Positions 14,116 to 38,300 of a stretch of 64,000 bases of DNA are shown here, piece after piece (within the stretch, counting starts at the first letter, position 1; each line of letters opens with the position of its first letter). Origin of the DNA: Amoebophrya sp. A120 (lineage: Eukaryota; Protista; Dinoflagellata); NCBI GenBank assembly GCA_905178155.1, contig CAJINV010000005.1, positions 1,390,438 through 1,454,437 on the forward strand, in the 5' to 3' direction. The notes under the pieces were generated by a model. That model ran no database searches, was not told the origin of the DNA, and was given only the letters and a program-made list of their open reading frames with translations. The translations under genes were made by a program, and so were the position numbers.

Positions 14116-15575
14116 TCACAAGAACTTCGTCTTAATCAGTTCCTTCAGCTTTCCCAGATCCTTGCCGAAATTTCGCAGGCCCTCGCTCAACTTCTCCGTT
14201 GCCATTTGATCCTCGTTCAACATCCATCGAAATTCTTTCTCCGTCAGTTTGCCCGGCTTTTTTCCATCTGCCTTCTTCACCAGTTCTGGAGCCAGTTTTT
14301 TTGGTAACCCCTCGCTGCTGGCTTCGAGCTCGGCGAGGAACTTCGGCCCGATGGTGAGCTTGTCGCAGCCCGCGAGGCAGCAGATCTCTTCCTTCGTACG
14401 GAAGGATGCGGCCATCACGATGGTTTTGTAGTCGTGTTGGCGGTAGTACCTGACAGGAAATCGAGGAATGGTGGCTTCTTCGCACGCCGTCTTGTAGACA
14501 ACTTACATGACAGGCGGTTGGTTTCATTTTTAAAACAATGGATGCAGCACAACATGGTGTAATCTTGAAGTGGCTGTGCGACGTATGAAGCAAAGAACTC
14601 TTTTATACTCGTAAATTTGCTTGACGCTCTTCACCCCTGGGTCCTTCTCCCCGGTGAAATCCGCGTCTGGCTGTGCCTTCTTGAACCAGTCCAAAATTCT
14701 CCCCACAAACGGCGAAATCAAGGTCGCCCCCGCTTCGGCGCAGGCTCGTGCTTGGCAGAAGGAGAAGAGGAGCGTCATGTTGCAGTGGATGCCCTCCTTT
14801 TCCAAAATCTCGCACGCACGGATGCACTCCCAGGTGGACCTTAGATATCAAGTCAGGTTGTTTCACAGAAGTCGATGGTGTACCAGAAGACGGAATCACG
14901 CATGACAAAAAACACCAGATCTTGATGAAATAACAACATGTGATGATATTAATACCCAAGCTTGATCAGGATTCTCTCCTTTTTAAACCCCGCCGCCTCA
15001 TACATCTTGATAATCTTCCTCGCCTTTGCCAAGCTGGCCTCGGTGTCGAAAGACAAATCAGCGTCGACTTCGGTGGACACATACCCAGGTACGAGCTTCA
15101 AAATCTCACAACCAAAGGACACGGCAAGTTGGTCGCAGATAGCGCCCAGCAGTTCGTCTTGGGAAGCCTGTTGGGACGTTGGGAAGAAAGGTTGAAAGGT
15201 TGTTCATCCGGGTAAGCATTTTTTGTGACAGTGTTTAGGGTTTAGGGTTTGCGTGACAGTGTACTACGTTGGTTCATTAGAAGCCGTATTGCAAAAACAA
15301 TCTACCTTTGCTGACACCGATTCCTTGGCCTTTTTCACTGCGGCATCCACGATGGATTTGTACTCGGGCATACCGCACGCCTGCAGCAACAGTGTCGGGT
15401 TTGTCGTCGCGTCTTCGGGTTTGAAGGTTTTTATTTTTTCGATATCCCCCGTGTCCGCGACCACGCCGCTCATCTGCTTCAAAGCGACCAATTGGTCCAC
15501 CTTTCGCTTCTTGGCATCCGGCGAAGGCGAGGAAGACCGGCTACTACGCGTGGTCTTCGTGTCCTGCTTCGTCAT
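14116..15575 (-). CDS. TAL1: Transaldolase, 4 exons (15575-15306, 15167-14956, 14839-14609, 14449-14116)
   Basis: Motifs [60 protein letters not shown]. Three in-frame GT-AG introns of 138, 116 and 159 bp. Confidence 0.95.
15225..15262 (+). repeat. Interstitial telomeric (TTTAGGG) insert between direct repeats
   Basis: GTGACAGTG(T) + TTAGGGTTTAGGGTTTGC + GTGACAGTGT, inside transaldolase intron 1. Confidence 0.8.
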
Positions 15576-17003: not shown

Positions 17004-20000
17004 TTATGCAATCAGCCTCTGCAGAAACGCGCGCAAGGAGGCCTCATCTCTATGTTTTTCAATGTCTGACGTTCTCACGTCAATGCAGCGCCAGCCTAGT
17101 TTCTCCACGAGTTTACGTTTGGTACGTGTTTTACCATTCGTCACCATCGGTAAGGTTGAGACGTCGAAGGGCTTTTCCTTAGTGCCTTTTGCAGCTGCTC
17201 CTGATCGAGGATCTTCGGCGTTGTTTGTGCAGGAGTTTGTGTTTGTCGCATCTCGTTCCTCATTACCTTCGAAAACCCTGACATAGTGCGACCACTCGCC
17301 GTCGACTTCGATCGCCGTCTTGGTTTCCGGCACCGCGATGTCCACGATTACCCCCGAGCCCGCCACTTCGTACTCCGCAACGGCGGTTTTCAATGCCGCC
17401 GCGCACCTAGCCGCAATGTCCGAGCTGCTCACGTCCTTGCCACACGCCAGGTACGCGTCCCGCAGCTCCCGCCAATGGGGCGTGAGCGGGCAGGTGAAAT
17501 TTGATGTCATGTTTTTGTTTACTTCTCCGCCGGGCACGGCCGCGGGCGTGGGCGATGAAACTATAGAAGGAGCGTAGTGTGTGTTTCTTGTTGTCGTGCT
17601 GGCTGTGATATTCCTACCCACCCCTAGTGGCGCCAACATACTCGTCCTCCGTGTGAGCCAGACGATGTACAGTTGCGACTTCCATTGCGGCTCCCAGTGA
17701 TGCTGGAAAACAAAACTGTTCCGACTGCTGTTCAGCGCACCAGCCAACACTTTCGGCAACAAGTCGAACCCTAGCTGCGCGAAGGCCCACAAGGCGTTGC
17801 ATTGCTGGCGGGCATCGAAAATGTGCCAATCTGAGGAAAAACGATCCGCGAGACGGTGCAGAAGTTGGTAGATTGTTTTGTTCTGATGTTCGTCCAAAGT
17901 AGCTTCCTTTTCTTGCAGTTCTTTCATCTTCCCATCGAAGTCGTTCATCATCCCGTTGAAGTCGTACCCGAGCTGCGCGCAGGCCCAGACGATCGACCCG
18001 ATTTGGTTCGGTTTGATCGTGCTTTTTGTGGTTTGCGCGACGGATAATCTTGATGTCGGATTCTGGTCGAAGTCGAGGATTTTCTGAGCGAGGTGATTCA
18101 GAACTTTCTCAGGTCGGAGACGCAGCACCGCGAGACTGTGGAAAATATTCGAGACGTGCACTGCGTCGTCAATCCGCGACCAGACAGAGTCACAAGTAAA
18201 TTGACTTGGTTCCCCCGTTCGCGTTCCTGACTCAGTACCCGCACGTGGTCCGCCCACCATCTCAAAGGCCGCGAACCGACAGTCGGCAAGGGCGAAGCTC
18301 CACAGGGAAAGTGCGATGCCTATGGCGCTCTCAACTGTTACATTCTCAACTGTTACATGATTTGCCATGCAAAATTGCCTTGACTATCAACGCCATCAAA
18401 CTGCTTCGCATGACAAATTCTCAGACGGCCAAACAGGCTGAGAATCTGCGCCAAATCTGTCATGCAAGACGCGCAAGGTCCTTCCTTTCACTTTTGGCAT
18501 TCTTGCATCACAAATTCGTGTAACAGTTGAGAATGTAACGTTTGAGAACGCCATAATGCCTCTGGAATCTCCGTGTTCGAGGAGGAAGTCAACGAAGCCC
18601 TTTTGAACAAAAACGTGCTCGTACTTCTGAAGGAAGTTATTTGGCAGTTTCGCCAGGGAGTAAAAAAGCGAGGTGACGTCCTGAACGCAAAACCGGTCGG
18701 TCGACGGGGTGTGGGGATCGTAAGCAGGAGGCCCGAGTGTCGTGGCGCCGGGATTGCTCGGACTGGCAAGCGTTGCCCTCCGATCCGGCACGAAGTTACT
18801 CCGAAACACGTGTGCTAACAAGGGCGGCAACACCATTTCCATGGCTACCGTCTGTGGCGCCGCCGGGTGCGTGAACGCCGCGACAAGCTGGCCTACTTCC
18901 CGGGCCAGCGCACGCTCGGGCTTCAGCTCCTTGGCAAACCGTCGAAAGACTTCCTCGTGAATTTTCGTGCGAGAAATGATGTTGATGGTATGTGCACTCG
19001 TAGTACAGCTCGCGGCTAAGAAGTCGTTGAATGCGGATAACAGCATGACGGATTCGCAGATGGTGAACTCGGAAACGTCCATTTGTTCCAGCAACCTCAC
19101 CGCTTCGGTTGTCCACAGAGTCCGTTGTTCGGGCTCGAAGGCCCACACATAGGAGAGTTGCTTCTGGTTCTTGTAGAGGTCGTCTACTAGCTGTGAACTC
19201 ATGCCTGCTGCGCCGTCGATAACAGACGAAGCGGCTAGTTCTTGAGCAGGTCCGGTTGACGCTACTGCCACGACATTTGGCCTTGCCTGGCCCGGTGGGA
19301 TCGCACAAGCCATGAAGGCTGTGGCTGTTGATGCTTCCTCGATACTAGTGCCTCCTTTCGATCTCATTCCCACCCCACAGCCTCCCATCCCAATTTCTGA
19401 TTCCGACCTCGCCACCAGCTTGCTGAGACTCCACAGCACGTTGCTCAAGTCGATGGGTTTTGGATTTCGTAAACGTAGGAAGCAGTCCGCTAAAGCGGCG
19501 AGTTCCGTCCGGGACAACTGGATCTGCATGCGGGCAAACCCCCACAGCGTATTGGCCAAATCCTTGGGGGACAAATCGCTTCTGGCAAATTCGTTGACCA
19601 ATTTTGGCTTCAACTGCTCTTGGATCTCCTTCACCGCATTGCTGAGATGCGCTTTCGCCAGTTCCAACTGCTGTACATCAGTTTTTCCGTTTCTTCTCGG
19701 AGTACTTTTGGAAAGCTTCTGGTCGCACCGCGCCAGCGTCATCACCGCACGCGCGAGGAGGCGGGTCGGGACCTCTTTGATCTGGCTTGGCGTTGTCTTT
19801 TCAAAGCTAGTATAGGCTATTGCGTTTTCATTTCGGGTTGTCGCGAACATTCTCACGATCCTTTCCCCACCGGCAGCAACAGCAGCTGCGGAGAGGTTTT
19901 GCTTCACGGACAGCAGATCTAAAACATCGACAAAGGACAACTCCACGTCTTGCTGCGTCAAATGCTTCTCAATCGCCGCAGTGCGGGCGGAGAGGTTCGC

Positions 20001-20288
20001 AACGCTCGTCTGCCGGTTCAGGAGTTGGGCGACGGAAGGACTCTTCCGGCAGCTTAAATGGTCGGTGACAGGAACAGCGGAAGCGCGGCTGAGTTCTTGT
20101 GCCCCCCTCGGCTGGGATAATGTCCTCGTGGGTTGCTGGTGCGGTAGTTGCAGCTGCGCAGATGCTCCCAGAGAGGGTGCGCAGGTAGAGAACGAGGCTT
20201 TGGCAACTCTACTGCATGTTGCTCTGTCGACAATGTCAACGCCACCACGCAGCGACCCATGGGCTCGCGAAAACCCGCGCTGCACCAT
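17004..20288 (-). CDS. RAP-domain protein with FASTK/OPR-like helical repeats (~1010 aa), split by one introner
   Basis: Repeats such as PKDLANTLWGFARM, PIDLSNVLWSLSKL and ARQQCNALWAFAQL. C-terminal RAP domain VDIAVPETKTAIEVDGEWSHY...GKTRTKRKLVEKLGWRCIDV. Removing the 240-bp introner gives DSRGIALSLWSFAL in frame. Confidence 0.88.
18321..18555. mobile_element. Introner (TIR transposon-like intron) in the RAP gene
   Basis: 37-bp TIR with 3 mismatches, TATGGCG...TGTTACA. 5-bp direct repeat ATGCC at 18316-18320 and 18556-18560. Element plus one repeat copy is 240 bp, which preserves the frame. Confidence 0.9.
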
Positions 20289-20779
20289 TTTTTTTTGTTT
20301 CGTACCGCAGCCTCGCTCTTAATTTTCTTCAGAATCAGATGTTGATGAAGACAGTTACGCTATAACAAAACGCCAAGCACAATAAGTAGAACGACGTTGG
20401 TGTGATGTGGGAAACGTCAATGGCTAAAAACGGTCGAAGGACGGAAAAGTAACGAGATCAGAAAAAAAAAAACTGTCATCTGGTCGTTCCGGGTGATCTC
20501 CATGAGAAGTCAGGAGGATGATCCAACGATATGTTGCTCAAAAAACGCACGATGCCAGACCACCGCCAGAGATCTTTACTGTGTCTTTGCTTTATGGGAA
20601 GGGGGCCGATTATACGACATATGAACAAGAATTTCCATGCGCCTGCGCTCTTTGAAGGAGCTAGCAGAAGGAGCTAGCTTCTTTGAAGGAGCCAGCAGTG
20701 CGTGCTCTACACAATCAAACTAATCTTCAGCATAATTTCCGTAAAAATCGTGCTAGTCAACGTTACCGTTAGGTAGCCT

Positions 20780-23104
20780 TTACTTCGACCCATTGTTTCC
20801 GGCCTGCGCGTGATTGCTCGTTGACCTCAGTGCCGACTGCGAAGCGCCAGTCATTGGTAGTAGTCTTTCCCGCGGGATTCCGAGCATGTCCGCCTGTTGC
20901 CATTCCTTTTGCGTGAACTGCAACAAGCCCTTGGGGGCAAACGCCGTACCAATAGGAGTGTCGAAGCACTTTTCGATGCGCAGCCGGTCGAAGTACGGAT
21001 CTGCTAGGCCGACGAGGGGTTCCAGACGCTGCCTCGGGTTCAGCAGCAGCATGCGGTCTAACAGGCTGAATCCCTGCTGCCACCGGGAAGAGAGACGTGT
21101 CGGGTGCCTGGGGGGGTTGATCATTTTTCAAGCGTACGCATGGCCTTTTCAGTCTAGTGTGCAAAAAAAAGTGCATAGCAAAATCAGCAGGCTGGTGTAG
21201 TGGAAGATGCGCGCGGGCCGGCGCGATCGCGAAAGAATGAATCGCAAGACAAATGCTCGTAAGTTTTTATCACCTCAAATATTCTGGCATAATCCAGGTC
21301 AGCGGCTTGCTTTTTATCGGTGGAAACTCGAACCGACAGTAGTCATGAACGTTGCCGCACAAGTCCGCGAGCTCCTCCTTCTTTGGTGTACCCCGCACCT
21401 TCACAATCTCGATCAGCTGGTCTACGCCGCCCTGTCCGGGAAAAATCGGCCGCCCCTCGTTGATCAGTTCGCCCATCACGCACCCCGCGGACCACATGTC
21501 AATCGCGCAGCCGTAGGTTTGCGATCCGAAAATCAGCTCCGGGGCGCGGTAATACCTTTCGATTATAAAGTATTCTGAATATTAAGTGACAAGATGTGGC
21601 TGCTGCACCAGCGCAGGGGCGGGACATAATTAATGTAAGTTTGGAAGCATGAGAACAGAAACAGGAATTTGGATGTTAATGTAAGTAATTGGACATGCAG
21701 CACACTGCTCACAGACTATGACTAAAGCAACAGCCTTCTAGTTTAATCTTGAAATAGCCCTCCGATACCTGCTGCAAATGTACTGCACCGAGGGGTTCCG
21801 ACTGTCCACCTTCTTCGCGGAGCCGAAGTCGCACAACTTCAAAACGTGCTGCTTCTGCATGTCCACAAGCAGATTCTGTGGTTTGATGTCGCGGTGCATG
21901 ACCTGGAAGCTTTTCAAGTACGCAAGCGCCCGTAGCAGCTGGTACGTGTACAGCATGATGAAAAACTCCGGCACGGCGCCGCGCGGGGGCTGCAGCTGCT
22001 GCGGGTTGTTCGCTCCGTGCCGGGTCGAAAAGCTCGTCCCGTATTGGTACTGCATCGCGAGCGGGTTGCGGTCGCGCAGGTGGCGGGCCACGTTGAAAAG
22101 CGTGTCCGGCATGTATTCCATCACGAGATTCAGGAACAGCTCGTCGCGCTGCGGGTCGCCCTGTATAGGTTTTTTTGACGGTAATGTATAGTTACTACGC
22201 GCAAGCCATACAGATACATCTCAAAACAGGAAACTTGGTTCAGAAGTGCTACTTTTCACGTGGAGCAAAGGCACGGCTTGGCTGTCATGAGAGAGGTGAC
22301 CACACACAACGTATTCAAAAATCATACTTGTGTGTGAAAGGGCGATATGAGTTTGATTATGTTCGGGTGCGGGAAATCCGTTTCCGCGGCGCACTGCAGG
22401 TCCTGCAATATCTGCAGTTCCCGGTTGCGGTAGCGCCGGTCCTGAAAAACTTTCTTGATCGCCACGTACTCCTGGTCGGGCATCACCTGGGCCAAGTACA
22501 CGATCCCGAAGGAACCGTTGCCAATTACCCTCTCCGCATTGTACGACTTCGGAGCGGAGGACGAGGACGTCGACTGGGTAGTACTTTGTGCCGCGTATTG
22601 GGGCGGCGGAGGCGGAGCTTGCTGCTGCTGCTGCTGTTGTTGGAGCAGCATTGCCTGGTGATCTTGTGCCGCAGCCATCTGCTGGTTGTAGGCGAAAGTT
22701 GGCGGGATGTTCGTCCCCACTACACCTGCAGTGCTTTGCTGCACATAGCTGTACTGCGGTTGCTGTGGCACACCACCAGCAAAGGACGCATGATGACTAC
22801 CGGCACTGTTGCTGGTCCCTGGCTGCAGGTAGTGGTTTTTGCTTGGAAACGAGCTCGACATCAAAACTTGCTGCTGAAAGTCGACGGATTCGTAATTCGA
22901 GCTGGTCTTGCTGTGAAAGGACTGCTGGTAAAGCATCTCAGGACCACGGTTCAAGCCGTTGTAGCCGTTGGTAGTCGTCGTCGATCCAATCACGGCGTTT
23001 GTCGTGGAATGTTGCAAAAGATCCGCAGATGAACCGCTGTTGTCGTCGTGCTCGTAGGGAGAGGAGGCGGGAAGGTTGTCGTACCGGCCGACGCCGACCA
23101 CCAT
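20780..23104 (-). CDS. GSK3: Glycogen synthase kinase 3 / shaggy-like kinase, 4 exons (23104-22328, 22160-21769, 21555-21274, 21107-20780)
   Basis: Motifs [65 protein letters not shown] introns of 167, 213 and 166 bp. Poly-Q N-terminal extension; start codon uncertain. Confidence 0.93.
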
Positions 23105-24128
23105 CGCGTATGAGCTGCTGCTGCTGTACGTACGTTACGACAAGAGCTAAGTACTGCCAGACGAGTAGAAAAGCACGAAGCGTTCGTGGGCAAGTAAGTA
23201 CTTGCTTCCCGGGGCCGGCTGGTGACTTGCGACGAAATTGCGATCCGCAGTTCTTCTAGACGAAGATCACGAATGGTGGGTCCATATTGGATCGACGATG
23301 CAGCACATGGACAGGGAATTGCTGCACGCGACTGGTTCGCTTGAAACCCGCCACATGATCCGCTTCAGCACCACTGTCCGGGGTCGCTGCAACGTGGTCC
23401 AAAGGACGAGCAGAGCCGAGGCACAACTTCACTCCACCAGAACGACAACAGAAACACCTGCGCCCTTTAAAGAAGCTCAGCGCGGCCTTTGATAATTCTG
23501 CCCAGCTACAACTTCAACACTGCTGCCCAAGCTTGCGAAATAAAATGTATAGAGGCAGAATTTTTCGTCCCACAAGAAAGACCGAGTCTGGGAAGTCGAA
23601 GTCGGGCAAAAGTTGCCTCCCACACTACATCATCACCTCCGCAGTGGCCTGATGCTGATTTCTAACAACATATACAAAAACTAAAACAAAAGCGCGTCAC
23701 TCAAAGAAAGCCGATTTTGCTGCCCCCGGGTGGAAGGTTCGCTCTTTCTTTTGTATACAGAGTTCTACACTTGAGAAGGACTTGCAACATTCACATTGTG
23801 TGGAAGGACTAGGGACGTACAGTCTTTCTATGGTTTTTAGTTATGTTTAGAGATGACCAAAGAACATCCATGGTTTTCTGATGGACAACAAGCGACGGCA
23901 CGGAAATGCTCGCTACAGTTGTAATTGTACTCGTGGCAAGAGGCGGTCTCTTGAGGTGAAAATGTGAATCAATCCGTCCTTCATGTCGCCTTTAAACTTA
24001 TGTCGTTTGTCATGTGATAATTTGTCTGCAGCCATTCGTTCCCGGCTACGCAACGAACTGAGGAGTTGTCGGTGCACTGTGGTGATGAGATGAAGATCAT
24101 ACCACAAGACTACAGCCACTCCCTATCG

Positions 24129-25166
24129 TCACACAACTTCCTGCTTCGCTACTGTTTGCGCGCCCGCTAGCTCCTCTGCCATCGCCGCGTCGTCAATTTG
24201 GTGGAAAAACCCATGTAAACACAGAAACATCAGAAACCAGAGCGCGTTGCTGATGACCGCGCTGCCGCACCAGAATACGATCACTAGACTCGTCACACTG
24301 AACATCACAAGCCACCTTTGTGACGGACCGAACGTGACGCCGCCTGCCGTTACCTGCCAGTCCGGATCCGCGTTCTTCTTCAGGAAGAGAAACCTGTGAT
24401 GATCATGGCAGTGTGGGGGATTGAGTGGTGGCATGACGAAAATAGCGATGGAATCCGATAATTGCAGAAGCAATGGCACAGGCACGAAAATGTGGCATAC
24501 ATTCTTCAAAAACCCCAAAATCAAATTACATTGCTAATATTTCACATCATCAACAACATACCAAGCGGCCCCTAGCATCGTGAACAGCAGTATCGCGCCG
24601 GGGAGTAGAAGCAGGCAAATAAGCTGCCAGAGGAAGAAGCACAACGTGTAGTTCGCACGGTATCGGCCAACATTCTGCATTAACGAACCGCACGCCGCCG
24701 CACCGTCCGCCGGCTTTGCCATCGGCAACGCGAATTCCCGCCAGGGCTGCATGACGCCGAATTTCTCGTTTATTACAGTGGACACAGGATTGTTCATCTC
24801 GCTAATCCCCCCGGTCCCGAAATTCAAGCTTGACATCCCGCTCAGAATCGAGTTCGCCCCCTCCTTCGCGCTTCCGGACTGCGCGGCCTGCTGGAGCGTC
24901 AGATACAGCCCCATCGCGGATTGCTGAGCGGTGAGAAGCAGCCGCTGCGGGTCGAAGGGGTTAAGTCCGGTTTGGCCAGTTCCGTTCGAGTCTAAGCTGG
25001 GCATCGGCGTGTTGCCGAATCCGCCGGGCGTGGAGTGGTGGAACTCGCGGGTGTCCACACCCGCGGGCGGGGGAGGCGGTGGGCCGGTTCCGGCGCCGAC
25101 AGTGGTAGGCATCGGCGGGTCGAAAAAATTATCGAGCTCCGGGTTCGGAGGCAGGGGAGGCTGCAT
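24129..25166 (-). CDS. PRA1-family (prenylated Rab acceptor) membrane protein, 2 exons, intact copy
   Basis: QPWREF...NVGRYRANY followed by hydrophobic helices and LHGFFH. 168-bp GT-AG intron at 24394-24561. Confidence 0.8.
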
Positions 25167-26749
25167 CTTGGATGAAACGTGCGGATGATATTAGATACTT
25201 TTTGATGTATGTTGTGAGTAGAGAGATAAAGATATTTTGTGTTCGCGACTCTACCGAACCTTGCGACAAGCTTCTTTCAGCATCATGTTGACCATGTAGA
25301 AAACTCAACGTACAAATCAACTTTAAATGATCTGGCAAAGCGGCTTGACTTATGGTTCGTACATACTGGAGCTGGACTAGTATGTAGCGGTCATGTCGCA
25401 GTCGCTGTTGTGGTGTGCCAGTGAGTCACAGGGGTTAGCGCCCAGGTCACGACCATGCCGTTCTCCTGGAGTTGCAGCTAGATTTTCATGTCCCCATGCT
25501 TACCATCTCGTTTGCAGTGAGCTTTTGTCCATTTCGTTCTGGTTTATCAAAGTTTTTTCTTGCTGTTGTTTTCTTGCATGTGCGTATATTGGTTGCAGCA
25601 TTTGCAGGAGCAGCGACTGAAGGAACAGACGCTCGTCAGCAAGGACGATGTGCCGCATGAGTGTGTCAAATGAAGAAGAACACCACAACATCCACTGGAA
25701 TACAGCAACAAGAACGGAAACCACGTGGTCCCCAGCTGCACAGTCAATGTCCTATATGACATTGAGCAGTAGAAGCAGTTCTTTCGAAATTTTTTCCTTT
25801 GCTATCAATCAATCAATCCGCTCACGTCTTTGGGAGGGTCAACGCGAGCAGGTTCTGCGCCTTTGCTCGCAGCGCTTTCTTCATAAGTTTCACTGAAGAG
25901 GGAACTTCTAACTTACAAAGATGCCGCAAGACAAAGTATCTAAAGATAGTAAACTTAGAACAAGATGAGTATTGGAAAAAGCTAAAAGTCTATGTTCTCT
26001 TTTGAAAACGATTTTTGATCTCTACAACCGTAGCTTGGAGTAAGTCATGAAGAGAAACGCTTTGGTGCTATGGTGCATTAACTTTGCTATACAATCATAC
26101 AATCTTAAGCTCTCGCTGGCAGGCGGAAGCTGGAGTCTAACCACCTTTATTTGGGGTTCATCTTTCTGAGTATCTTTCCCAGTCGTTATGTTTCGAATCT
26201 GTACTACTTCAGCTCTCGGTTTATTTTTACAAGGTCAGTTCCGGTTGTGGTAATCGTGACGGTGGGTGGAGGCAGTTAGCTGTAGCTCTAAGCGGAGGTG
26301 AACAAAAATCAATCCCGATTCATACAGACTTTAACTAAGTTATGCAACCCCCTTGAGGTAAGGGCGGTTGCGGTTACTGCAATGCTACGGTTTCTTGGAC
26401 ATCATATGTTCTCTTATCGATTCACTGTAGCTGTACTAGTGTACGTTGCAGTTATTCAATATTTTCACATACGGGGTGCACACCTATACCAGCATGTTGG
26501 AATACCGCATCAACGAACTTTGGTTCGTCATTGATTGCGGGCAGGGGTGCTTCAAAGACTTACATTAGCATTAGCCTTGTACAAGAAGGGAGTTTAACAT
26601 TCGAGTATATGATCAATAAGTATATTACTAAACAGTTCGGAACAAAAATAAGGAGATTAAGTTCAGGTTTTGGTCGTGAGATGCCTTGCTTTCTTGTTTG
26701 ATCAAACAGATTACCGATTAATGAATGAGATTACTAATCTCACAGTAAG

Positions 26750-28221
26750 CTAGTTCCCCCGCACCATGGTCGAGGACTCCGCACCCGGTTGCGCCTCCTG
26801 CATCGGCCCCGGTTTGCCTTCCAGGGGACCACCAGCATCCAACTCGCTCTCCTTCGCTTTTCCCGTGTCTTGCCCATGCCCCTCGAAAACCAACATGGAG
26901 GAGATGTCATGGTTGAGCGGGTGGAGATCGTCGATACCGCTAGTGGGTGGATTTTTGTGCGCGATGGGTTTTTCCGACGCAGCCGTAGTCACCAGATTCT
27001 CTCCGTCGCCGCCGCTAACACCTTTTCCCGGCGTGAGTTCCCTTGCCGTTTCCTGCAACTGCAGCGCTGTGGCTGTCGCGGATTCCGATTCGTCGCTCGT
27101 GCCCGTAACCGTGCCTCCGCGAGCGGCAGATCGTACAGCAGTTGCGGGAGGTCTGCCTTCTTGTTGTTGTTTTGGTGGACTTGCTTGCGGCGGTGGTGCT
27201 GCAGCCTCTTCTGGCGATCCATTCGTGGAACCGTCTTCCTGCGGCTGCAACTGTGACCTGGTAAGTTATTTTACGCACGTCGTTGCCAGGGCGGAAAAGG
27301 TCGTTCTTCATATTCTCGACATTCGCATAAGTGATAACTCACCTTTTAGCTTCGTAGTGTGACCTACGCAAAACAAACTTCTAGAACTATCTCAAGAAGT
27401 ACTAAGTACGTTTTCATGCCGGGAACGAGTGAATTCGTTTTCACTGGACCGTCAGTCTCACGTTTGAGCAAAGGAGCGTCCTCGGGCGCGGAGGGTAACG
27501 GACTGCGGATTGTCAGCGTGGTAGAAGCGGTTACAGTCTTGCCTGCGACTGCACCTGGTGCTGGAGCGGGTTGTGGCTTTCTCTTCTGTGGGAGTTCGAC
27601 GACTCGGAGTTCCTTTTCTTCACCGGTTCGTTTCTCCAGTACTTTGCCTTGTTTTTCCTCGGGGCTCGGCGGGCCGTGCAAATCCAACTTCCCCTGCAGG
27701 TGTTGTCGCTTTCCAACATCACTAGTTTCCAAAATCGAATAAACCTCGTCCACAACTGCGTCTCGATCTTGAGTTGCTTCTTCGCCGTGCTGCCCGTGTT
27801 CTGCCGTTTCATCTGCTTCAGCAGCTCGCTGGAGCGTTTTCCGGTCCTCCGGGTCAGGCACGTGTTCCAGGTGCCCGACAATGTCAGTGTCACCCTCATT
27901 CTCGGGCGACGGTTGTACATACGTGTAGACGCAGGCATCGTTCTATCCAGGAAGATAGAACCCTTCCCATCCCCATCCATTTTTTGCATGACACACACTA
28001 GTCTAGACTTGGCTCATGTTTTGCATGGCAAATTAATTGGATGGGGTTGTGTGTTTCTTCCGGGATACGTTCTGAGTTACGAGATCTGTACCCCACTTTA
28101 TCATCTTCCACGAGCAGTTTTTCCCGTAGTAAGCAACGGCGCCCCGGCGAGACGTCAGCGGTATTCCATGCAAGAATGTAGTAACTGTAGTAGATGAAGA
28201 TGACGTTTTTATAAATGACAT
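26750..28221 (-). CDS. 3' exons of a low-complexity hypothetical protein, copy 1
   Basis: Exon-like ORFs at ~28221-28080, ~27942-27405 and ~27256-26750. The last exon is homologous to 44863-45357 (LHPLNHDISSM...ESELDAGGPLEGKPGPMQEAQPGAESSTM). Confidence 0.5.
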
Positions 28222-28841
28222 GACTGCACCAGCTTTATCATCTGAAATGGCTATAAAGAATTGCGAGAAAAACTCGAGCAGGCGTTGCGGATAATCTAAA
28301 TCCGCGGAAGCTGCCTCCGGATTGGCATCCGTGCCCCCTGTGCGAGCCTGTGTTTTTTATTTTGTGAGCCTACTACCTACATCTACATGTTAGAAACGGA
28401 TAAGGGAAAGCTTGCAACAATTCGTCTTGAACAAGGTTTCATAATCTTCCGCGGCCCCGTCTTTGCGCGGTTATAGAGTGACTCACTTCCCCATGATGCC
28501 GCAGTCACCTCCCCATATCGCGCCCGACTTTCCCTTGCCTGTAGTGAATTTCTTTTCCATGATGGTGTGGAAGTTGGGAAGTCAGCCCCTACTTCCCCCC
28601 CCATCTGCTGCGAACAGAAACGCCGAGGCGGCCCTAGACATCGAGCCCTAACATGCCCTAGGCCCACCCTAAGCGAACATCTGGCGCGCGGCTCCGTTCA
28701 GCACCAACCCAGGGGCTGCAGGAGGGCCAAGATGGTGCAAGGGGTGCAGGGAAGTGACCGATGCAGTGTGGAGTGAGGCAGTGGCGCAGCTGGGAAAGCG
28801 GTGCACTCGAAATGAGGTAAGAAAGAGCCTGGGGAAGTGAT

Positions 28842-29393
28842 TCACTCCCTTACTCGACTTGCGGGGAGAGAGGCTTTCCCGGCAGCGAGTGAGTTTTTGA
28901 TGTGATTACGTATACGTTTAAGTCTTGAATTTCCGTCTAGGTACTCCGAGTACCCGTTTCGGATGTCGTTACACACGGCATCCCATGGATATATTGATTT
29001 AAAGGTATTCACTTCTTCCTCGAGCTCCTTCTCCTGCTCTACACTTATTGCGTCGTGGTCGACGTCCGGAGCGTGTTGTACGTGCGTGGGGGCCAATTCC
29101 GGGTTGGGGTTGGGTTGCTCGCTTGTTCGTGTCTCTTTTTGTTCGTTGAGCAGCTCCACGATTCTATCACGTAGAGATCCGGATGGAACATGTTTGGAAC
29201 AGGCTTCTTGGTATTTTTCTGGCGTCTCCGAAAGCGGAGAATATGGATACAGAAAAGCGATGTGCTCATCATGGGAGGGGGGAAGCCTCACACTCACACT
29301 CAACATCCATTTAAGTATTTCATAGACCTTTCCTTGCTGAACCTGAAGCTGCTTCCCAATCCCATTGGGCGGCCACATATAACGTGGGGGCAA
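28842..29393 (-). pseudogene. Hypothetical ORF fragment in a copy-1-specific accessory segment
   Basis: 183-aa protein-like ORF whose upstream frames are broken by stops. No family recognised. Confidence 0.3.
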
Positions 29394-29805
29394 CTGGTGG
29401 CGCTGCTACATCACATATATGCAATGCTCAAGTTCAAGAATCCTGAGTGTGTAGATCACAATTAATGGCCAGAGAACTCATCATATTTCAAAAGTTTGTG
29501 CTTGATGGTACATCAGAGAGAGACGAAAACGAAATGAATCGAAGTGCAATAAACTTGCCTAGCTTGTTACCAACAATAGCCGCGTCCGCGGGGGTAGTGA
29601 GGTTACAGAGGTCGTTTTCTCGACTGCCCGACTCCCCTTTGCTGCACCCACTGCTTTCGCGCGTTCCCGATAGCAAATGAGCCGCCCTCGTTAGTAAGTA
29701 CCTCAAACATGCCATCGCGTAACACGTTGCCCCACGCGGGGTCGGGGACGCTAGATATTTTTATTTGTCACGGCCATAAGTCGCGGCCACCGTTCTGTCT
29801 TCAGC

Positions 29806-30376
29806 CCGAAAGCCCTTTCCCGCATGCTATGGCCCAGCCAGGGCCTCCACTAGGGCCGGCCCCTTGGGCGCCCAAAATCGGGCCAATCGCATGAGGGCTC
29901 ATTAGCAAGCTTTTTGCTTTTGGCGGCGTTTGCGTTTGTTTTGTGCGTTATTTTGTGGCAAAGTCGCGCCCCTGCACCTGCTGCCGACAGAGGCGAAACG
30001 CTCACCCTCCCGCACGCCATGGCCACCCGAACGAGGTCCCCCTCCAGGGCCGGACCGATGGCCCCTCGAAATAGTTCCAATAGCCTGCGGGTTGCTTGGC
30101 TTTCGGCTTTTGGCGGACTTTGCGTTTTAACTTTTGTTGAAGCCTTTCCCGAAAGCTATGGCCCCGCCAGGGGCTCTACCAAGGTTGGCGCATCGGGCAC
30201 CCCAAATCGGGCTGACGGCATGCGGGTTAGCTTTTTGCTTTTGGCGGTGTTTGCGTTTTTTGCTTTTTTTTATTGAAAAGCCGCGCCCCTCCTGGTACCG
30301 ACAGAGGAGAGACGCTTTCCCACACGCTATGGCCACCACAGGGCCTCCGCCAGGGCCGGCTCTGTGGGACCCCAAA
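29806..30376. repeat. Degenerate GC-rich tandem repeat (~3.5 units of 140-190 bp)
   Basis: Recurring core TTTCCC..GCTATGGCC...AGGGCCGG...AAATCGGGC...CTTTTGGCGG.TTTGCGTTT, with units starting near 29815, 30007, 30144 and 30315. Confidence 0.7.
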
Positions 30377-31809
30377 TATCATACATATATCACGCAAAGC
30401 AAGCGGCGCCTTTTGTGTATGCCTGAAAACCAGTGAACAGGAGTCCTGGTCCAAATTCTACATTTTGTCATGATGTTTTTCATCTGTTGCACACCGAGTT
30501 TCTACAATTCGATACAGGGCTTGGATCATCTACATCTTCGTTCGAGCTCTCGTTCAGTATGGCTTTCGTGCATTCTTGGACGGTTCGGCGCGTTCTTCTA
30601 GTAGCTGCTTCTGGAAGTAGATTATTCACACCCGCTTGTACTGCGAGTGCGGCTGCGGTCATAGCTCCTTTGACGACTTTTCTCGTGTCGTACATGGTGT
30701 CGAAGCGGCTGTCGTACTATGCAGCGGGTACAAACATTCATTTCTTTTTCTGAGTGTGTCGTTGCCCTTTTTACCGACGCGGTCATCCTACCTGTGACCC
30801 ATCTTCGTCAAATATCATATCATTAGCTGTAGTGCATTGACATGGCCATCATGATTGGAAACACAGCTGCAGCGAAAGGATAGCATTGGTTCGAGGCATT
30901 GCATGCGCAGCAGTTTAACTGGATCCGCGGTTCAACATAGTGCCCCCAGTTCAAAACCAGCCCGGCGCCTACAAAAATTAAGAACAGTTAGCTCTTTAGT
31001 ACGATGAAGCGGCGCCCCTCCTTCGTTTGAAGGAGGGCATGATCTTTCTCCCGGGTACCTTGTCAAAATGTTGGGCACATTCTCAACGGGGGGAGCGGAT
31101 GTTCTCCGGCACCCGTGCGGATCTGTACCTGAGACGCCACAGCAGTGTCGTCTTAGATGATGAGGCAGCAGGGCAATTTCGTGTGTAAAGTACGCCGCAC
31201 GAGGACGCGCGCGTCTCGAGCAGAAGCCTGTTCCGTCAATAGCGTGCGCGCGCGCGCGCGCACGCTAGGAATTATGCACGCCGATGCTCCGCGCTGATTG
31301 GCACGCAGCGACGCTTTTTGCGACCACTCCACTCCATCCATGCGTTTTGTAAAGTATGATTCTGCGAGTGTCTGTTTTGCGCGCGGACCTTGTTCGCTTC
31401 GCTCCTCCCACCTGCCCTTTTCGTATGCTGGTCGTCGCATTTCGGGGGGATCTGTTTCTCCGAAGGCACCTTCCCGAACAGGGGTACCTTCTCGAATTGG
31501 TACACATCTAAATATTGAGTACTTAAAAATGGGTATCGATATCAAGTCAACAACCAGCCGTCAGAGAGAATTTGACACGAATCCGGCAACGGAAAACGTG
31601 GAATGAGACACGGACAGAGTGTGCTGGGAGGGCGGCGAAGTGTGCGAGCCTGGCAGAGCACGCAGGGCGCATAGAGGATGGAAATGCGGTATGCATCACC
31701 AACACGACCAACAATGCCACCATACTCGAAGTACCGCTCGGGAACTACAGGAATGACATACGTATACGACATCAGAAAAAGTCGACAGGTTCTTGTTTGA
31801 GGAACTTCA

Positions 31810-34627
31810 TTAGCATAGCAGGTTTGAATTGACGAAGTCTTCGACGCTGGTGCCCGGTGCGGCCCCGCAGCACACGTTTTGGCTTAGTGGTTCAGTGTCT
31901 AGAACTACGTTCCAATTCTCTTTCAATTTGCCAAACGTCCCTGTACACAACTGGACCAGAAACCATCGCGCTTCTTCTTCTTCTTCTTTGCTCACCTCCT
32001 TCGGCTTCTTCTGCTTCTTCTCCTTGCGCCGCCAGGAGGAAATGGAAAAAGAGGGCATGTCCAGTTGCAGCTCGCTTTGTGTTCCTTCGCCGTCTTCCTT
32101 TCCGCCAGTCGTAGTTGCAGCTGGGATCCTTTTCGCTTGGTCAGCTACATCTTGTTGCTCTGCAGAAGTCGTGCTCGTCTTCGACGTGTCTGTCATTGCT
32201 GCTGCGCTTGCAGTTTCCTCGCCGTGTGGATCTTGGGCGTAGGCTGTGGCATGAACGTCGCGCGCACCATCCCTGTTTGTTGTCCTGTGAGAATGTTCAT
32301 GCTCACCAGATTGTTCCTGCTTCATCGTCATCGTCTGGCGACCTGCTTCTGCCTCATCGCTCTCAGCCTGCAGCAGTGTTTGTTCGCTGCTGCCTCTGAA
32401 GGAGCTCCGTGGCTGCTCCACCAGTGCATGGGAATGCATCGGATCCGCGTCGTGTAGTTCTTCATTCTGCATCTTCAGTGCTCCAGTAGAGTCGTGCAAT
32501 TCCGTCGATTCTTGTTCGGTCTTTGTAACTACTGGTTGCTCTTGATGCAAAGAGGCAGATGCTAGTACTGCGGGCACCACAGGTTTTGCTTCTGTGGTTC
32601 TGGTGATCTTTTGCTGCTCCCTTCCGACTGTGCCGGAAATCCTCGGACTTTGACTCTCCGCCAAAGCTGAAGCTCCGACTTGCTTGTGCTTCACATCAGA
32701 TCTTGTGTCCAGCTTTTCTTCTGCTGATGCTTGCTTGGCGTGATGTCTTCCCGCAGCCGCTTCTTCATCGCCATGCACGCCATCTTTGTTGGGAGCTTTT
32801 ACTCTCTGTTGATTTTCGTTGTCGGACAGTTTCTGTTCAGCAATTTCGTTTGCATGGTGGTGCACTGGGCCATCTTGGCCGTCGAAATGCTTGTCCTTTC
32901 GTGCCGCGACGATCTCGTGCCCTTCTTTAGCATTGGCGTCTTGCGCTTGAGTGTCAGGCTCCTGCTGATACTTACCCGCATTGTTGTTCAGCTTGAGATG
33001 TTCCCGTGTGTGCGCATGATGCGACGTAGATACTGTACTAACCTGCAGCAGCTGAATCGCGGTCTCTACTTCGAGGCTGGAATCATTCTGGCTCGGGCCA
33101 TCAGTTGCAACAGACTGTTCCGGATCGGCCTCCGATTCCTGTTCGAACTGAGGCTCAGTCTTCGCGGCGCTAGCTTCCTCCACAGCGGTGCCTGGTTGAA
33201 ACCAAAATGTCATTTCCATGTATTCTTTGATAACCGACTTCATTTATTTCAACAAACATCATACAATCTTTGTCATCGTTGGGTCACACGAACATAGATA
33301 AATAATTCAATAAATTGTTCATTCTGGTGTCAAAAAACTTATTCATACCTTTACCTGTCAACCAGCTCCATGGCGTGAGCACAGTCGTTTCGACCAATTT
33401 CCACAGAGACGCCGGCGCATCCACCACGAGGAAGTTATAAAGCCGCACTACTTTGCTGGTTCTCACCTTGCACCGACCGTCCCTTCGGCGCAGCATGCTG
33501 TAGCACGGTGTATTCGCGCCGCTCGTTGCGTTCGCGGTTGCATTCGTCGTTGCATTTCCTGCTGCTGCATCAGTGCCATTGCCGGCAGAAGGAGCATTGG
33601 CAGCCTTGCCCGACCCCGCCGACACTGGACCGGGGACGAGGATAGCGGCAGAGTCGGCGATGTTCCCGGCCTGGTCCATGCTGTAGCCGTTGACCGGGAG
33701 CGTCGCGTTGGTTCCGGGCGTCAGCTTGTCACTGGCCGTGGGCAGCTGCGTCTCAAATGGTGGAGATCCGCTGGTCGAATCCGGCTCCGGAAGATCTGCA
33801 GCAGGAGCGTAGAAGAGGTCGTCGGAATCCGTCTGCGCTCTTTTTTCGGGCTGCGTAATTGCGTGCGCGAACAGAAGGGGAGAAGACGCGAGGCCAGGAT
33901 AGTACGACGGCCATGAACACAGAAGTGTCGCTGACGGTGATGCTGAGGTAGAAGAAGAGGTGTGCGTGCGAGAAGTGGTGCTGACTGACTCGCAGTAGCC
34001 CTGCACATGCTGTTTCTTTTCTTTCTTCATGTCGGCTGACTGCGAGTGGAGGAACAGTGGCATCATGTTGGTCATGTTGATGCTCGTACTCCGGCATCCT
34101 TCGAGACCCGAGTGAAGATCCACCCCATCATGTGCCGGCCAGAAGTTTGAGAAGTTAATCGTCGAAACAACTGCGGGTTGCGACTGCGTGAAGAGTGGTG
34201 AATCCGCACGATGCCAGCGAGTTCGTGAGCGGGACGAAGAAAAGTACGGTTCTGGTGCAGGCTCGATGTGTTCTTGCTCGTGCGTCGAATGGGGAAACCA
34301 CTCCCAGTCCCAACGACCGAATAGCATGAGCGAGTACCCCAGCGCCATGATCTGCAGAATGCGGATGAACATCATTTTCAGGATGGCACCAGAAGAGCAG
34401 AACCACGCCTGCTGGTGACAACTAATTCCCGCCAACAGATGAAGGGGCGTGCCGTCGCGGGAGTGCGGTTTTCTTGGAAAGAGCCTCGACGACCCCGCCG
34501 CAGAGCGACGTTTGGAGGTTCCGGACTTCTTCATTTTTATCGCCACCGGCGTCGCCACGCGATGTCGCTTGCGAAAGGGGTGATCAAGATCAGGTTGTGA
34601 ACAATCTGGTACAGCGCCTTCCTCCAC
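31810..34627 (-). CDS. Low-complexity hypothetical protein, possibly membrane or secreted, copy 1 (5' exons)
   Basis: A GT-AG intron at 33192-33354 joins the two long ORFs (WSWLT G|TAVEE). Hydrophobic N-terminal segment and an exon-1 block conserved with copy 2 (PCYSMLRRRDGRCKVRTSK). Confidence 0.6.
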
Positions 34628-35383
34628 ACTACAGTTTTTCTTTCTGGGTCTGGCACCTCCAAGGCCTGCTGCGGAGCTTAGAGGTTTTTTCCCAGAGCCA
34701 CCAAGTCCATCTTGATCATGATTGAGCTAAATCTGAGTTTATTCTACTCGCATTTACTACATAGTTACTCTCTCTGTTTCGAAATTGAATAGGAAAGATC
34801 TTTTTGAAAAAGATAAACCGGAACCTTGTTCTTCTTCTTCGCTCTGTTGCTTTTTTGAGCTTCAAGACGAAACGCCACTATCTCACTTTATCGAGAAGGT
34901 GAAGGCTCCACCTCCACGACAGATCATGCACTCCATGTCTAAATGTGACTTTTGTACTTACGATTTGCACCTGCAAAATCCCTCATTTACCCTCATCTTC
35001 GAGTGTTTTCATGCTCTTCCCTCATCTTCGTACCACAAGCACTAGCACCAGTGCGTGGAGTCTCTCTACGTCTATGACAGTGCGTGGCGTCTACGTCAGT
35101 CTTTGTTTCCTTTTAAAATCAATATCGAAATATCTGCGAAAAAGCAATGCTGGCATAGCTGGTATGCTGCCTGTGGACCACGAAGACCATTCTTGAGGTA
35201 GAGGTTGAAGATGGAGGTTCGTAATCCAATGCGAAAATTGTGATGAAAGGCTGATAAGTAATGGTATCTGCGGACGACAGGACTGCAGCACAACAACAAT
35301 GGTAAAGGGTTCCTGTCGTGGTAGCTGCTAGTAGAAGACGATCGCTTCACTTGATCTTCATCTTCATGCTGCTCATCTCAAAC

Positions 35384-38300
35384 TCACAGGCCACGATACC
35401 CAAACCCCTCCAGATCTCCCTCCGCCGCTTCCCTCTTTTCCTCAAATTCCAGAGCGCGTTCGTGCGCGCTTCCGCGGGCGGAGAATGCGTTCTCTCCACC
35501 CGCTCCGCCATTCTGCAGTTCCGCCAAGCTCTGCGACTTCTTCTCCGCGTAGAAGGTTACCTTACGCCACATGTTTTCCGCCCGACACTTGTTGCACCGC
35601 TTCGGGAACCGGCCACTCAAAATGTGCGTCGAGAACTTGCACTTCTGGCACTGGATCCGCTCCTTCGTGACGTCCCGCCAGATTTCCACCGTGTGCCCCT
35701 GCTGCTCGCACGCCAGCTTCGAACGGACATATTCAGTCAGAATGTTGCACTGCTTGCAGTAATACGCGGTCACCGGGAGGGATTTGACCTCCAATTTCGT
35801 CTCGTGCTCCACGTCCTGCTGTTCCATGGTGGCCAGCCGCGTGTCCACCTGCTTGATCTTTTATCAAATGCAAAAGCGTCTGGGTCTGGAAGGTCGCCAG
35901 GTTTGTCATGCATATTTTGCATGACCCATGATGCTTGTAAAGCATCACCTAGCATCACAGATTTTTGGAGGGCATCCTGATGCCTATTCCGCATCACAAA
36001 TGTCCTTCCCACGTAGCACAAAATGAGCTCTTCTTCCTGGTCATGCAATACAAATGTTTTTAGGATCCGAAAATAGCATGACAAGTTGCATTCTTCCAGA
36101 CCCAGACACGTTTACATTTGATATCTTTTCCTTTTCGACCAAATCCGCCGCTTTAGTTTCCGCCTTGTTCAACTTGGACGTGTCGAAAGACGCCATCTGT
36201 GCCGCGACACTGGGCCCGTACAGAGCCTCCATGCGCTGCCGGGAAATCTCGTCGGTCGCTAGGCGGGGTCGTGCTGCGCCGCTTGTTGCAGAAGCGGTTT
36301 GATCGTCCGCAGTGGAATTCGTGGTTCCAGCTGCGCCGGAGGACACAAGACTAGTGGAGGATCCAGCACCACCAGGCTTCTTCACGGCTAGAATTTCCTT
36401 CCGATGATTCTCCGCCCCGCGAAGCGCGTACGCATTCGTACGGCGGTTCATCGCGCCAGAGCCGGGAGCGTGCCTTTTAGAAACAACGGTCGCTGCGCCG
36501 GTAATTGTAGCGACTCTGGAAAGTTTGGCGCTACGCGCATCTTCCGGATCATCTTCCAGGCCGCCTCGTTTCTGCAGCGTCTGAGCCAGAAACGCCGTGT
36601 TCGCTTCGGCTAGCAGTTCCTCGCGGGAACGCTTGTTGCTTGACGCTGTGGTGGAATTGGCAGAAAGGTTGAAAACCAGAGAACGGCCTGCGCTACTGTC
36701 TGCTGGTGTGGATCTTGTAGGCACAGGACCCGAAGAACTCATCTGGTTGCCCGGTGGGTTCGTAACACCGGATATCCTTTCCGAGTGTGTGAGTTCTTCC
36801 ACATTGCGCCGCTGAAACTGAGCGGGAGGCATGATCATCCTGGACATTGTCGGTCTGTCTGCAGGTTGAGGGTTGTGCCGTGGTTGCGATGCAACCTGAG
36901 GTGCCACTACAGGAACCAATTGCTTGGAACCAGGACCGCCAGCCGTGTTGAAAAGACTTCGCGTACTGCTAGGTACCATAGCAGCATTCCTCGCGTTCGA
37001 TGCAGCTGTGCCTGCAGCTGGCTTCACAATCGCTGGTGCCGCAGGCCTGTTCGTCCTGTCCGCAACTTTACTTCGCGGTCCACCTCCACCTCCCGCAATG
37101 GCCATTTGCATCAACGCATTGTTCTTCAGGGGATCCTTTTTTTTGATTCTGTGCCTCGCCTCAATCGTGTCTACAGCTGCACCAGGGACGGTTTTTGCTC
37201 CTGGTCCACCAGTCGACGGAGCAGGCGGCCTGCCCTGCGTAGGGGCCGCCGCTGCTCCCCCGCCAGAGCGCGCGTTCGACGAAGAGTTTTGAGGCGCTTG
37301 CGGGACCGTGCCACCTCCGAGCGTCAGGCTCTTCGTCGTTCCGGAAACTGTAGTGGCTGTTGTAGAAGGGCCAGCTCCCGACGCTGGATTTCCAGGTTTG
37401 TGTTTCTTCACAGCAGGAGCACCCGCCGTTGATGAAATATTCTGGTCGAAAATGTTGCCGATCCCGCGAAAAGTCCCGGGCTTCCGCATGGCCGCTGGCT
37501 TCAAGTGCTCCGGTAGGGCCTCGATCGCCTCTTTGCTTGGTGGAACAACATTAACCGCCGCGCGGCTCGGTCCAGAAGATGTAGTTGCGACGCCTGGTCT
37601 AGTAGTGTTGCCGAAAGCTTTATTTGATGGTCCACCAGCAGGACCGCCTCCGCCCCGGTAGAGCTTCGGCCCCCCGCCGTGAAAGCTGCAGTAGCCGGTG
37701 GGGCACCGTTCCAAGTTGATCACCATTCCGCAGCGTTCCTGAGTGGCCTTCTTCACGCCCCGACACTCGCCAAGGTGCGGGAACTCACCGAGTTTCAGAA
37801 TTTGCGAAGATTGGGACACAGTCGCGGAGTAGGAAGAGGAACTGAAACTGTTCTTCTGGTTGCTGTTGGTATTTCCACCATGAGTTCCACTTCCGCCGAC
37901 GAGCAGCATGGCATTCAAAATTGCAAAAACGCCGCCCCGCCTCGCAGCGGAGTTGCCGCGCCACTGGTCTCTCGCGTCGTCGAACAGCATCATGCGCAAG
38001 GTGGTTGGCTTCGGGAACTCCACGTCCGTTAAAACCCACGGTATGTACAGGTTCCCCGCATTGGACTTCTTGATCATAGAAGCCTCTTGCAAAACAGCGA
38101 TCAAAACAATGTTTTCCAGAACATTCGAAGGCTTGCTATCCTTTCCCTTCTTTCCCTGCCCTTTATTACCCTCGCTGTTACTCGCCGCTGCAGCTGCGCC
38201 TGCCGCTGCCATCGACATCGTCGCCGCCATGTTTCCAAGTTGCGCGAGCGGCACAAACTTCTTCCCGCGCATCAGCTGATCGAGTTTGTCGGCCCGGATC

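Follow-up and report, generated by a model that had tools for sequence, protein, structure and literature searches.

A short internal motif shared by introner families and a subset of GT-AG introns in Amoebophrya sp. A120, and its possible role in introner mobilisation

The stretch of DNA considered here, referred to below as the window, comprises 64,000 nucleotides (nt) of contig CAJINV010000005.1 of the dinoflagellate Amoebophrya sp. A120 (positions 1,390,438 to 1,454,437). All of its annotated genes lie on the minus strand, and they are interrupted by ordinary GT-AG introns as well as by introners, for which the published text on A120 gives TAT-starting inverted repeats, short direct repeats, 29,850 copies and 1954 families (Farhat et al. 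2021, PMC7789003). Our subject is a short motif, GCAT(G/C/T)ACA(A/G), that recurs inside introners of many families and inside a part of the GT-AG introns. An earlier note on the window had drawn attention to it in the form GCAT[C/G]ACA(A/G)AT; the core of that form holds, and the full motif is wider, GCA(T/A)(G/C/T)ACA(A/G)(A/G)(T/C).

Splice joints were taken from RNA-like contigs of one sample, whose RNA status was guessed by a program and which cover positions 1-40000. Among the joints listed for this part, ten GT-AG introns and seven non-canonical introns are joined out, the latter being the introners of the RAP-domain gene and of the MCM10 gene plus five within one gene (27944-31817). 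The elements, listed without strand, are:

18321..18555: introner of the RAP-domain gene; TAT...ATA, terminal inverted repeats (TIRs), 5-bp duplication ATGCC; 18316-18555 skipped in RNA-like contigs
27944..28067: third introner; TAT...ATA, 5-bp duplication CGTTC; site 27986-93 (+), variant 28023-30 (+); excised as GT..AC
28162..28402: introner, old and decayed; spliced; without a motif site scoring 9 or more
28472..28852: old introner; no motif site; skip 28468-28853, cut unambiguously at 1 base ahead of the element and 4 behind it (sense)
29242..30514: introner, old and enlarged; spliced; a single weak site only
30718..31817: old, enlarged introner; weak sites only; skip 30714-31818; unambiguous 1+4 cut
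35862..36123: introner of the MCM10 gene; duplication TCTTT; skip of 267; frame of 1256 codons after excision, with an MCM10_OB domain
57020..57281: copy of the MCM10 introner, 100% identical, within a segmental duplication and not independent

These elements show the features of A120 introners: a TAT-starting TIR with an A run, a direct repeat, non-GT-AG excision and genomic repetition. At least 122 records among the DNA contigs continue from the RAP introner into other flanks at 18555. The direct repeat at the boundaries matches at 5 of 5 positions in the elements starting at 18321, 27944 and 35862 and is decayed in the four old ones, two of which, with their duplications decayed, give unambiguous 1+4 cuts with sense ends GT..CG and CT..AC. 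Excision of the RAP introner leaves an open frame of 1024 codons, and removal of five introners and two GT-AG introns from the gene at 27944-31817, whose coding region holds five introners of graded age, gives a single frame of 1505 codons. The inverted repeats of the RAP and MCM10 introners, which the earlier note had called unrelated, indeed cannot be aligned; both follow, however, the TAT-(C/G)...AAAA grammar that is common to all families. As that note had also said, both elements carry several copies of the motif on both strands: at 18408-15 (+), 18458-65 (-) and 18505-12 (+) with a variant at 18361-68 (-) in the RAP introner, where they form two mirrored pairs, and at 35904-11 (-), 35952-59, 35991-98 and 36076-83 (+), plus variants, in the MCM10 introner.

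The GT-AG introns of the window that carry a site or a near relative of it are:

2153..2236, minus strand: predicted intron; site 2177-2184 (sense)
11022..11165, minus strand: site 11071-11078 (sense); joined out, contig pieces 10150-11021 and 11166-11486
11488..11606, minus strand: site 11578-11585 (sense); acceptor side only in an RNA-like contig, donor predicted and placed elsewhere by the gene finder
14840..14955, minus strand: intron of the transaldolase gene; site 14900-14907 (antisense); joined out in RNA-like contigs
21108..21273, minus strand: intron of a protein-kinase gene (GSK3-like, a label assigned by us); variant site GCAAGACA at 21244-21251 (antisense)
54359..54515, minus strand: near-consensus site 54454-54461 (antisense); paralog of an RNA-joined intron

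Two more GT-AG introns are predicted, at 11910-12052 and 12156-12327; they would fuse the genes at 10.8-11.6 and 12.3-13.2 kb and stand outside the counts.

The 8-mer GCAT[C/G]ACA has 19 matches in the window, four of them (57062-57241) in the duplicate of the MCM10 introner and two overlapping PI-PLC start codons. Counts were restricted to the unique part, 1-54515, which leaves out the duplicate. There, the seven introners (3651 bp) hold 8 matches against a shuffle mean of 0.31, and the 21 GT-AG introns (3127 bp), eleven of which were placed from frames or paralogy, hold 5 (three sense, two antisense) against a shuffle mean of 0.46, a number reached in 0 of 300 shuffles. No match lies in 30,234 bp of coding sequence (CDS; 2.4 expected) or in 17,503 bp of other non-coding DNA (1.4 expected), one PI-PLC match straddling the class border at the gene start and being counted in no class. 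The 7-mer GCATSAC occurs 12 times in the GT-AG introns, against 1.21 expected. All 8-mer and 7-mer positions of the earlier note are present in the sequence; of the ordinary introns it had named as hosts five remain, while the match at 27986 falls out, sitting as it does in the third TAT...ATA introner. From the window by itself the motif would not have emerged de novo. The motif can be defined from introners alone, so that the test for enrichment in GT-AG introns is not circular.

A 21-base pattern from the end of the RAP introner led to 81 loci in a second, public assembly (contigs JACKZZ01). After three loci (L058, L059, L081) had been dropped, five contained overlaps removed and one pair merged, 72 sequences with 743,900 bp were left. 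This assembly shares the introner families of the window at about 67-90% identity, with relatives of the RAP introner at about 68-90%. Because the loci were picked through one family, counts are weighted by family. A search for TIRs plus duplication found 507 elements where block-shuffled sequence had 54, and a stricter filter retained 458 elements in 38 families, the TAT and ATA ends being part of the search definition. The duplication is exactly 5 bp long in 369 of the 458 and 6 bp long in none, in elements that had been selected on a 5-bp match.

Ranked by the number of families in which it occurs, GCATGACA is the top 8-mer of these elements, and GCAT[CGT]ACA is present in 433 of the 458, representing 27 of the 38 families and mostly with 2-5 copies per element. 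GTCCTTCC, a further sequence that had been thought common to the RAP and MCM10 introners, occurs in 3 of the 458 elements and is put down to chance. The shared motif is conserved while the elements spread: in 417 copies compared with the consensus of their five nearest relatives, the difference is 0.038 in motif columns, 0.059 at the ends and 0.098 in other inner columns, and the motif columns lie below the other inner columns in 8 of the 8 families tested. In older copies the motif thins out. Its density drops from 12.0 through 11.0 and 7.7 to 6.4 per kb with decay of the duplication, and in the 15 copies that have diverged most the ratio of motif to other differences climbs to 0.78. The four old introners of the window hold no site scoring 12 or more, yet they are spliced, and the motif is thus dispensable for splicing. 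Conservation during spread, later thinning and the continued splicing of old elements are together in keeping with a site for moving rather than for splicing. The sites are arranged like subterminal repeats, in several copies that keep certain distances to the element ends: for outward sites these distances cluster at 40-43, 47-52, 68-73 and 79-89 nt and are phased with periods of 9.5-10.5 (Rayleigh p 0.001-0.04), and the spacing of sites in the same orientation peaks at 31-33.

For ordinary introns, a gene finder was seeded with the window; of the 21 introns used as seed it finds 18 again, a figure that is no independent test. It returned 351 GT-AG introns in the second assembly, 203 of them with well-supported flanks. 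Removal of introns with element overlap or a BLAST match of E<0.01 gave a strict set of 142, in which 18 matches stand against 2.7 expected. Since this filter also discards motif-centred short matches, a relaxed filter (E<1e-4 and at least 30 nt) was applied to all classes. The relaxed set of 162 introns (30.0 kb) holds 32 matches (19 sense, 13 antisense) or 1.07/kb, compared with 18 matches in 173 kb of other non-coding DNA (0.10/kb) and 20 in 287 kb of CDS (0.07/kb). The density of the motif in predicted GT-AG introns is therefore about ten times that in other DNA, on both strands, and the enrichment over a shuffled background for which the earlier note had proposed a search is found in the window and in the second assembly alike. 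In a de novo ranking of the relaxed set the motif comes first at order 3 and stands in the top rows at order 2. Window and second assembly combined (21 + 162 = 183 introns), a perfect core is present in 34 introns, eight of which have two, and absent from 149.

Site-bearing GT-AG introns are commoner in introner-rich genes (24/96 vs 5/66, p 0.006), and 34 of 42 sites lie 20-60 nt from the nearer intron end (p 0.006, for a range chosen after the data had been seen). Perfect pairs in the same orientation are 32-34 apart in 3 of 7 cases; with one-mismatch partners included the figure is 4 of 29 (p 0.06). Introns without a perfect site contain 119 one-mismatch sites against 90.6 expected. A few introns with canonical ends partly align to introner families. 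One predicted intron of 187 nt (locus L004, near 1809-1995) has strong GTA...CAG ends and an inner part of 84 nt that is 74% identical to the largest introner family, and may be an intermediate on the way from introner to ordinary intron. T and A at first seemed to be barred from the free position (0/23 in the strict set); this was set aside as partly a filter effect, as 4 of 41 sites have them under the relaxed filter.

In place of a polypyrimidine tract, 60 of the 183 GT-AG introns have a T run behind the donor and 55 of the 183 an A run in front of the acceptor, and these runs could pair with each other; in introners the polarity of T run and A run is opposite.

The best single candidate for a decayed introner is, suggestively, the transaldolase intron (14840-14955), which belongs to a gene with an exon 100% identical to a protein named Amoebophrya sp. 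A120 and 68% identical to its counterpart in A25. It has a faint TATCA...TGATA inverted repeat (14846-14948), its site lies 49 nt from one end, and its end score of 26 (null P 0.004) is reached by 2 of the 183 introns; its predicted fold is not significant (z -1.27).

As most of the GT-AG introns in the second assembly are gene-finder predictions, their enrichment might be largely an artefact, in which introners that are old or from rare families were given GT-AG ends by the gene finder, helped by compositional bias. We consider this improbable. It is true that 41 of the 203 predictions are introner-like or overlap an element call, many being mis-bounded introners, that L039, one of eight two-site introns inspected, is probably an element with wrong boundaries, and that a de novo ranking of the strict set places the motif no higher than rows 6 and 8 at order 3 and nowhere in the first 12 patterns at order 2. 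The ten fully RNA-joined GT-AG introns of the window, taken alone, contain only 2 matches where about 0.23 are expected (P about 0.02, a hand calculation from the class rate). On the other hand, site-bearing introns have normal splice scores (9.7 vs 9.3 in the others and 6.5 in the removed set), and an alternative introner-type boundary of 16 or more is found in 0 of 29 of them, while 95% of the called elements reach 17 or more. Introns in the better half by splice-site score are at least as strongly enriched (0.91/kb), the enrichment holds in the strict set as given above, and the first rank at order 3 was obtained in the relaxed set.

What kind of molecule reads the motif? A signal in the RNA, be it a divergent branch point (the motif contains U-n-A-C) or a stem former, seems very improbable to us. 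In its favour, whichever way an element inserts, one of the outward copies comes to lie in sense 40-55 nt ahead of the 3' cut, the hairpin predicted for the RAP element pairs mirrored copies with each other, and sense sites slightly outnumber antisense ones in GT-AG introns (25 vs 17). Antisense copies are enriched as well, however (13 in 30 kb), and in introners the strand relative to the host gene is even (674 sense, 694 antisense), with inward copies as common as outward ones (632 vs 643). Relative to the splice sites there is no fixed distance and no sense-only pattern, the outcome by which the earlier note would have recognised a splicing signal, and 5' and 3' halves are used alike. In 71 of 231 mirrored pairs the free base is identical, against 34% expected; with no covariation, RNA pairing does not account for the mirrored copies, and in most GT-AG introns there is a single copy, or the copies share one strand. 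When the final 50 nt of 163 GT-AG introns were searched for branch points, A/C-rich tracts came up but no sharply defined motif, and GCAT(G/C/T)ACA(A/G) itself is neither confined to the sense strand at a fixed 3' distance nor present in most introns. The proposal of a protein site at the DNA level is indirectly favoured by the even strands, the free distances, the conservation across families, the phasing of about 10 bp and the missing covariation.

Nor is the motif a general intron mark, given that 149 of 183 GT-AG introns have no perfect core and that old, site-poor introners are spliced. The idea of an intron-marking system needed for splicing, put forward in the earlier note, finds no support on the same grounds.

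The explanation that we prefer, at about even confidence, is that GCAT(G/C/T)ACA(A/G) is a subterminal DNA site of the mobilising protein and that its copies in GT-AG introns are footprints of earlier introners with remodelled ends. A protein that mobilises TAT...ATA introners, transposase or host helper, would bind the repeated internal sites close to the element ends. Insertion of an introner would found an intron, and the motif would be held under conservation as long as the elements spread. Once inserted, the motif would be free to decay, splicing going on without it. The ends of earlier introners would be remodelled to GT-AG, and some motif copies would remain. In favour of the footprints speak the frequency of site-bearing introns in introner-rich genes, the position of sites 20-60 nt from an intron end, some spacings of 32-34, the surplus of one-mismatch sites in introns lacking a perfect one, the disappearance of the site in both paralog pairs, the few partly aligned introns with canonical ends and the rarity of the motif among introns as a whole; MITE subterminal repeats bound by a transposase provide a precedent for the site itself.

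Several observations weigh against these footprints. Site-bearing GT-AG introns lack introner ends, with ATA at -7..-5 in 1 of 34 cases, a GTAT start in 15 of 34 (55 of 149 in the others), duplication matches that are no higher than elsewhere and an end-pairing score above 20 in 3 of 34. Once the motif is scrambled, no similarity is found among them or with any family of a library of 38 (1954 are reported for A120, and family-matching introns had been removed beforehand), and they are shorter than the others (median 153 vs 173). Yet the motif seems to have decayed little: the likelihood of the flanks is highest at 0.05 substitutions per site, and lower by 2.8-3.3 log units at 0.2 and by about 6 at 0.3. 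The ratio of one-mismatch to perfect sites is 1.2 under the relaxed filter (bootstrap 0.49-2.25) and 1.8 under the strict one, both ratios being rough because dinucleotide shuffles overestimate one-mismatch counts by 14-21% in other classes. Of relics simulated at such low decay (up to 0.15 substitutions per site), 44-62% still have visible inverted repeats. Fresh motifs without inverted repeats therefore lead us to reject a plain neutral decay of whole elements. No long TIR element with a transposase-sized frame was found among 6 candidates in 744 kb, and the predictions that make up most of the GT-AG introns lack RNA support and include the mis-bounded introners mentioned above. An all-against-all comparison of the site-bearing GT-AG introns gave no families.

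With neutral decay of whole elements rejected, the footprint explanation needs remodelled ends and extinct families. On these terms a fit at 0.15-0.2 substitutions per site costs 1.4-3.3 log units and agrees with the mismatch ratio and with the share of two-site introns, assuming that the old families had today's motif profile. The suggestion of the earlier note that many normal introns are decayed introners may apply to some of them, between about a fifth and a third; an excess of introner traces in site-bearing GT-AG introns, which would go with it, is not found.

Site-bearing introns that lack inverted-repeat ends and yet have fresh motifs leave room for selection by the host. The motif could be a host DNA element selected in a subset of introns, such as a helper in chromatin or co-transcriptional splicing, which introners amplified for movement or tolerance; we regard this as possible and clearly less probable than the footprints. 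Its flanks in GT-AG introns are as sharp as in live elements at several positions (a purine follows the core in 40 of 41 and G is avoided before it), no further introner trace accompanies it there, it shows no excess outside introns after masking, though 81 elements were called outside genes, and U1 small nuclear RNA, undetected in A120 according to the text of PMC7789003, leaves room for new aids. Against host selection stand the 149 introns without a core, the loss of the motif from old introners that are still spliced, and the way in which the motif follows the introner load of the gene. Site-bearing introns do not cluster by gene and are not biased to first introns (2/24 vs 27/138). The site is moreover retained in neither of two paralog pairs, with introns 67% and 79% identical; intron 33192-33354, for example, has no site at the place homologous to 54454-54461 of its paralog. 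In a more far-reaching form, which we find rather more doubtful, a host factor would read GCATNACAR in introns on either strand, dozens of unrelated transposon families would have converged on phased copies of it, and selection would keep the site in a fifth of ordinary introns, linking an intron mark to mobilisation and to the tolerance of non-GT-AG introns in an organism with no U1 detected. We tentatively rank footprints of earlier introners above host selection.

Alternatively, the sites might be scraps of introners that inserted into pre-existing GT-AG introns and were then mostly deleted. Nested or partial elements in GT-AG introns exist (L002, L004, L029), and the transaldolase intron resembles a nested remnant; yet scraps should also be expected between genes, where there is no excess, and site-bearing introns are not longer than others and their flanks match no known family. 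Such an origin is hardly probable for the sites as a whole.

The window contains several other features. A 9.8-kb duplication (32985-42674 and 54146-63867) has a near-identical middle (about 34.5-40 kb, including MCM10) and flanks that differ by roughly 10% or more, which hints at a recent gene conversion or at an effect of the assembly; 24.2-27.1 and 42.7-45.2 kb form another paralogous block. At 52575-52780, about 170 bp of (GCATG)n are followed by (GCACT)n, the first unit having the first five motif bases in common. The region 16377-17000 is a GC-rich repeat with inverted ends, a perfect palindrome of 52 bp (16832-16883) and telomere-like units, multi-copy in DNA contigs. Also multi-copy there is 493-4200, of which 745-1732 is missing from one copy. 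Finally, 49826-51760 is a tandem duplicate of roughly 1 kb with four 123-nt repeats and no long frame, possibly a non-coding RNA array or a repeat; an Rfam scan of the window gave no match.

For the putative enzyme that moves the roughly 30,000 introners of A120, a conserved, phased motif offers a bait for pull-down as well as a tag for autonomous elements. In GT-AG introns it may serve as a marker that outlasts the inverted repeats, and so allow a direct test, across the genome, of an old question of intron origin: can ordinary introns arise by the maturation of non-canonical introners? Should the motif instead be under selection in ordinary introns, it would be an undescribed, strand-independent intron element.

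Apicomplexans, which like dinoflagellates are alveolates, have a non-coding TGCATGCA element that is bound by AP2 proteins. It has GCATG in common with our motif and lacks the conserved ACA(A/G) half. A link between the two was rejected, as TGCATGCA shows no significant enrichment in any class (introners 8 vs 29.8 expected, GT-AG introns 4 vs 2.1).

Among known systems, the subterminal repeats of the Emigrant/Lemi1 miniature inverted-repeat transposable elements (MITEs) of Arabidopsis, as far as described in the text of PMC1636448, come close: they are non-autonomous TIR elements with repeated subterminal motifs, bound cooperatively by a transposase supplied in trans. Unlike there, the motif of A120 spans 27 of 38 families with unalignable ends, and the elements are spliced as introns. 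The TA..TA termini recall IS3EU/GingerRoot, whose enzymes are integrase-like DDE enzymes and whose duplications, in the text of PMC10045372, are usually 6 bp long; here 0 of 458 elements have a duplication of that length, and no transposase was found in 744 kb. A120 elements with TIRs and homology to long terminal repeat (LTR) integrases are mentioned in PMC12130899. Since A120 yielded no transposase, Farhat et al. (PMC7789003) argue against mobilisation by transposases as a general mechanism; their text gives 35% of introns as GT-AG and about 19% at positions common with A25, nearly all of these canonical. The texts, as far as accessible, of PMC12130899, PMC9860276, PMC11282704 and PMC12005148 mention no internal motif, 'GCAT' has 0 matches in the supplement text of PMC7789003 (logos and alignments in Figs 3, S14 and S19-S25 lie outside a text search), and a literature search including four 8-mer forms found no description of the motif, though figures and supplements of introner papers could hold one. 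In their TAT inverted repeats with an A run, direct repeats, length of about 240 nt, non-GT-AG splicing and many families, the elements agree with the A120 introners of PMC7789003, and differ from its text, which has terminal motifs only, in an internal motif that crosses families and is found in GT-AG introns too. The elements are thus known introners, and the new point is the presence of their motif in about a fifth of the GT-AG introns.

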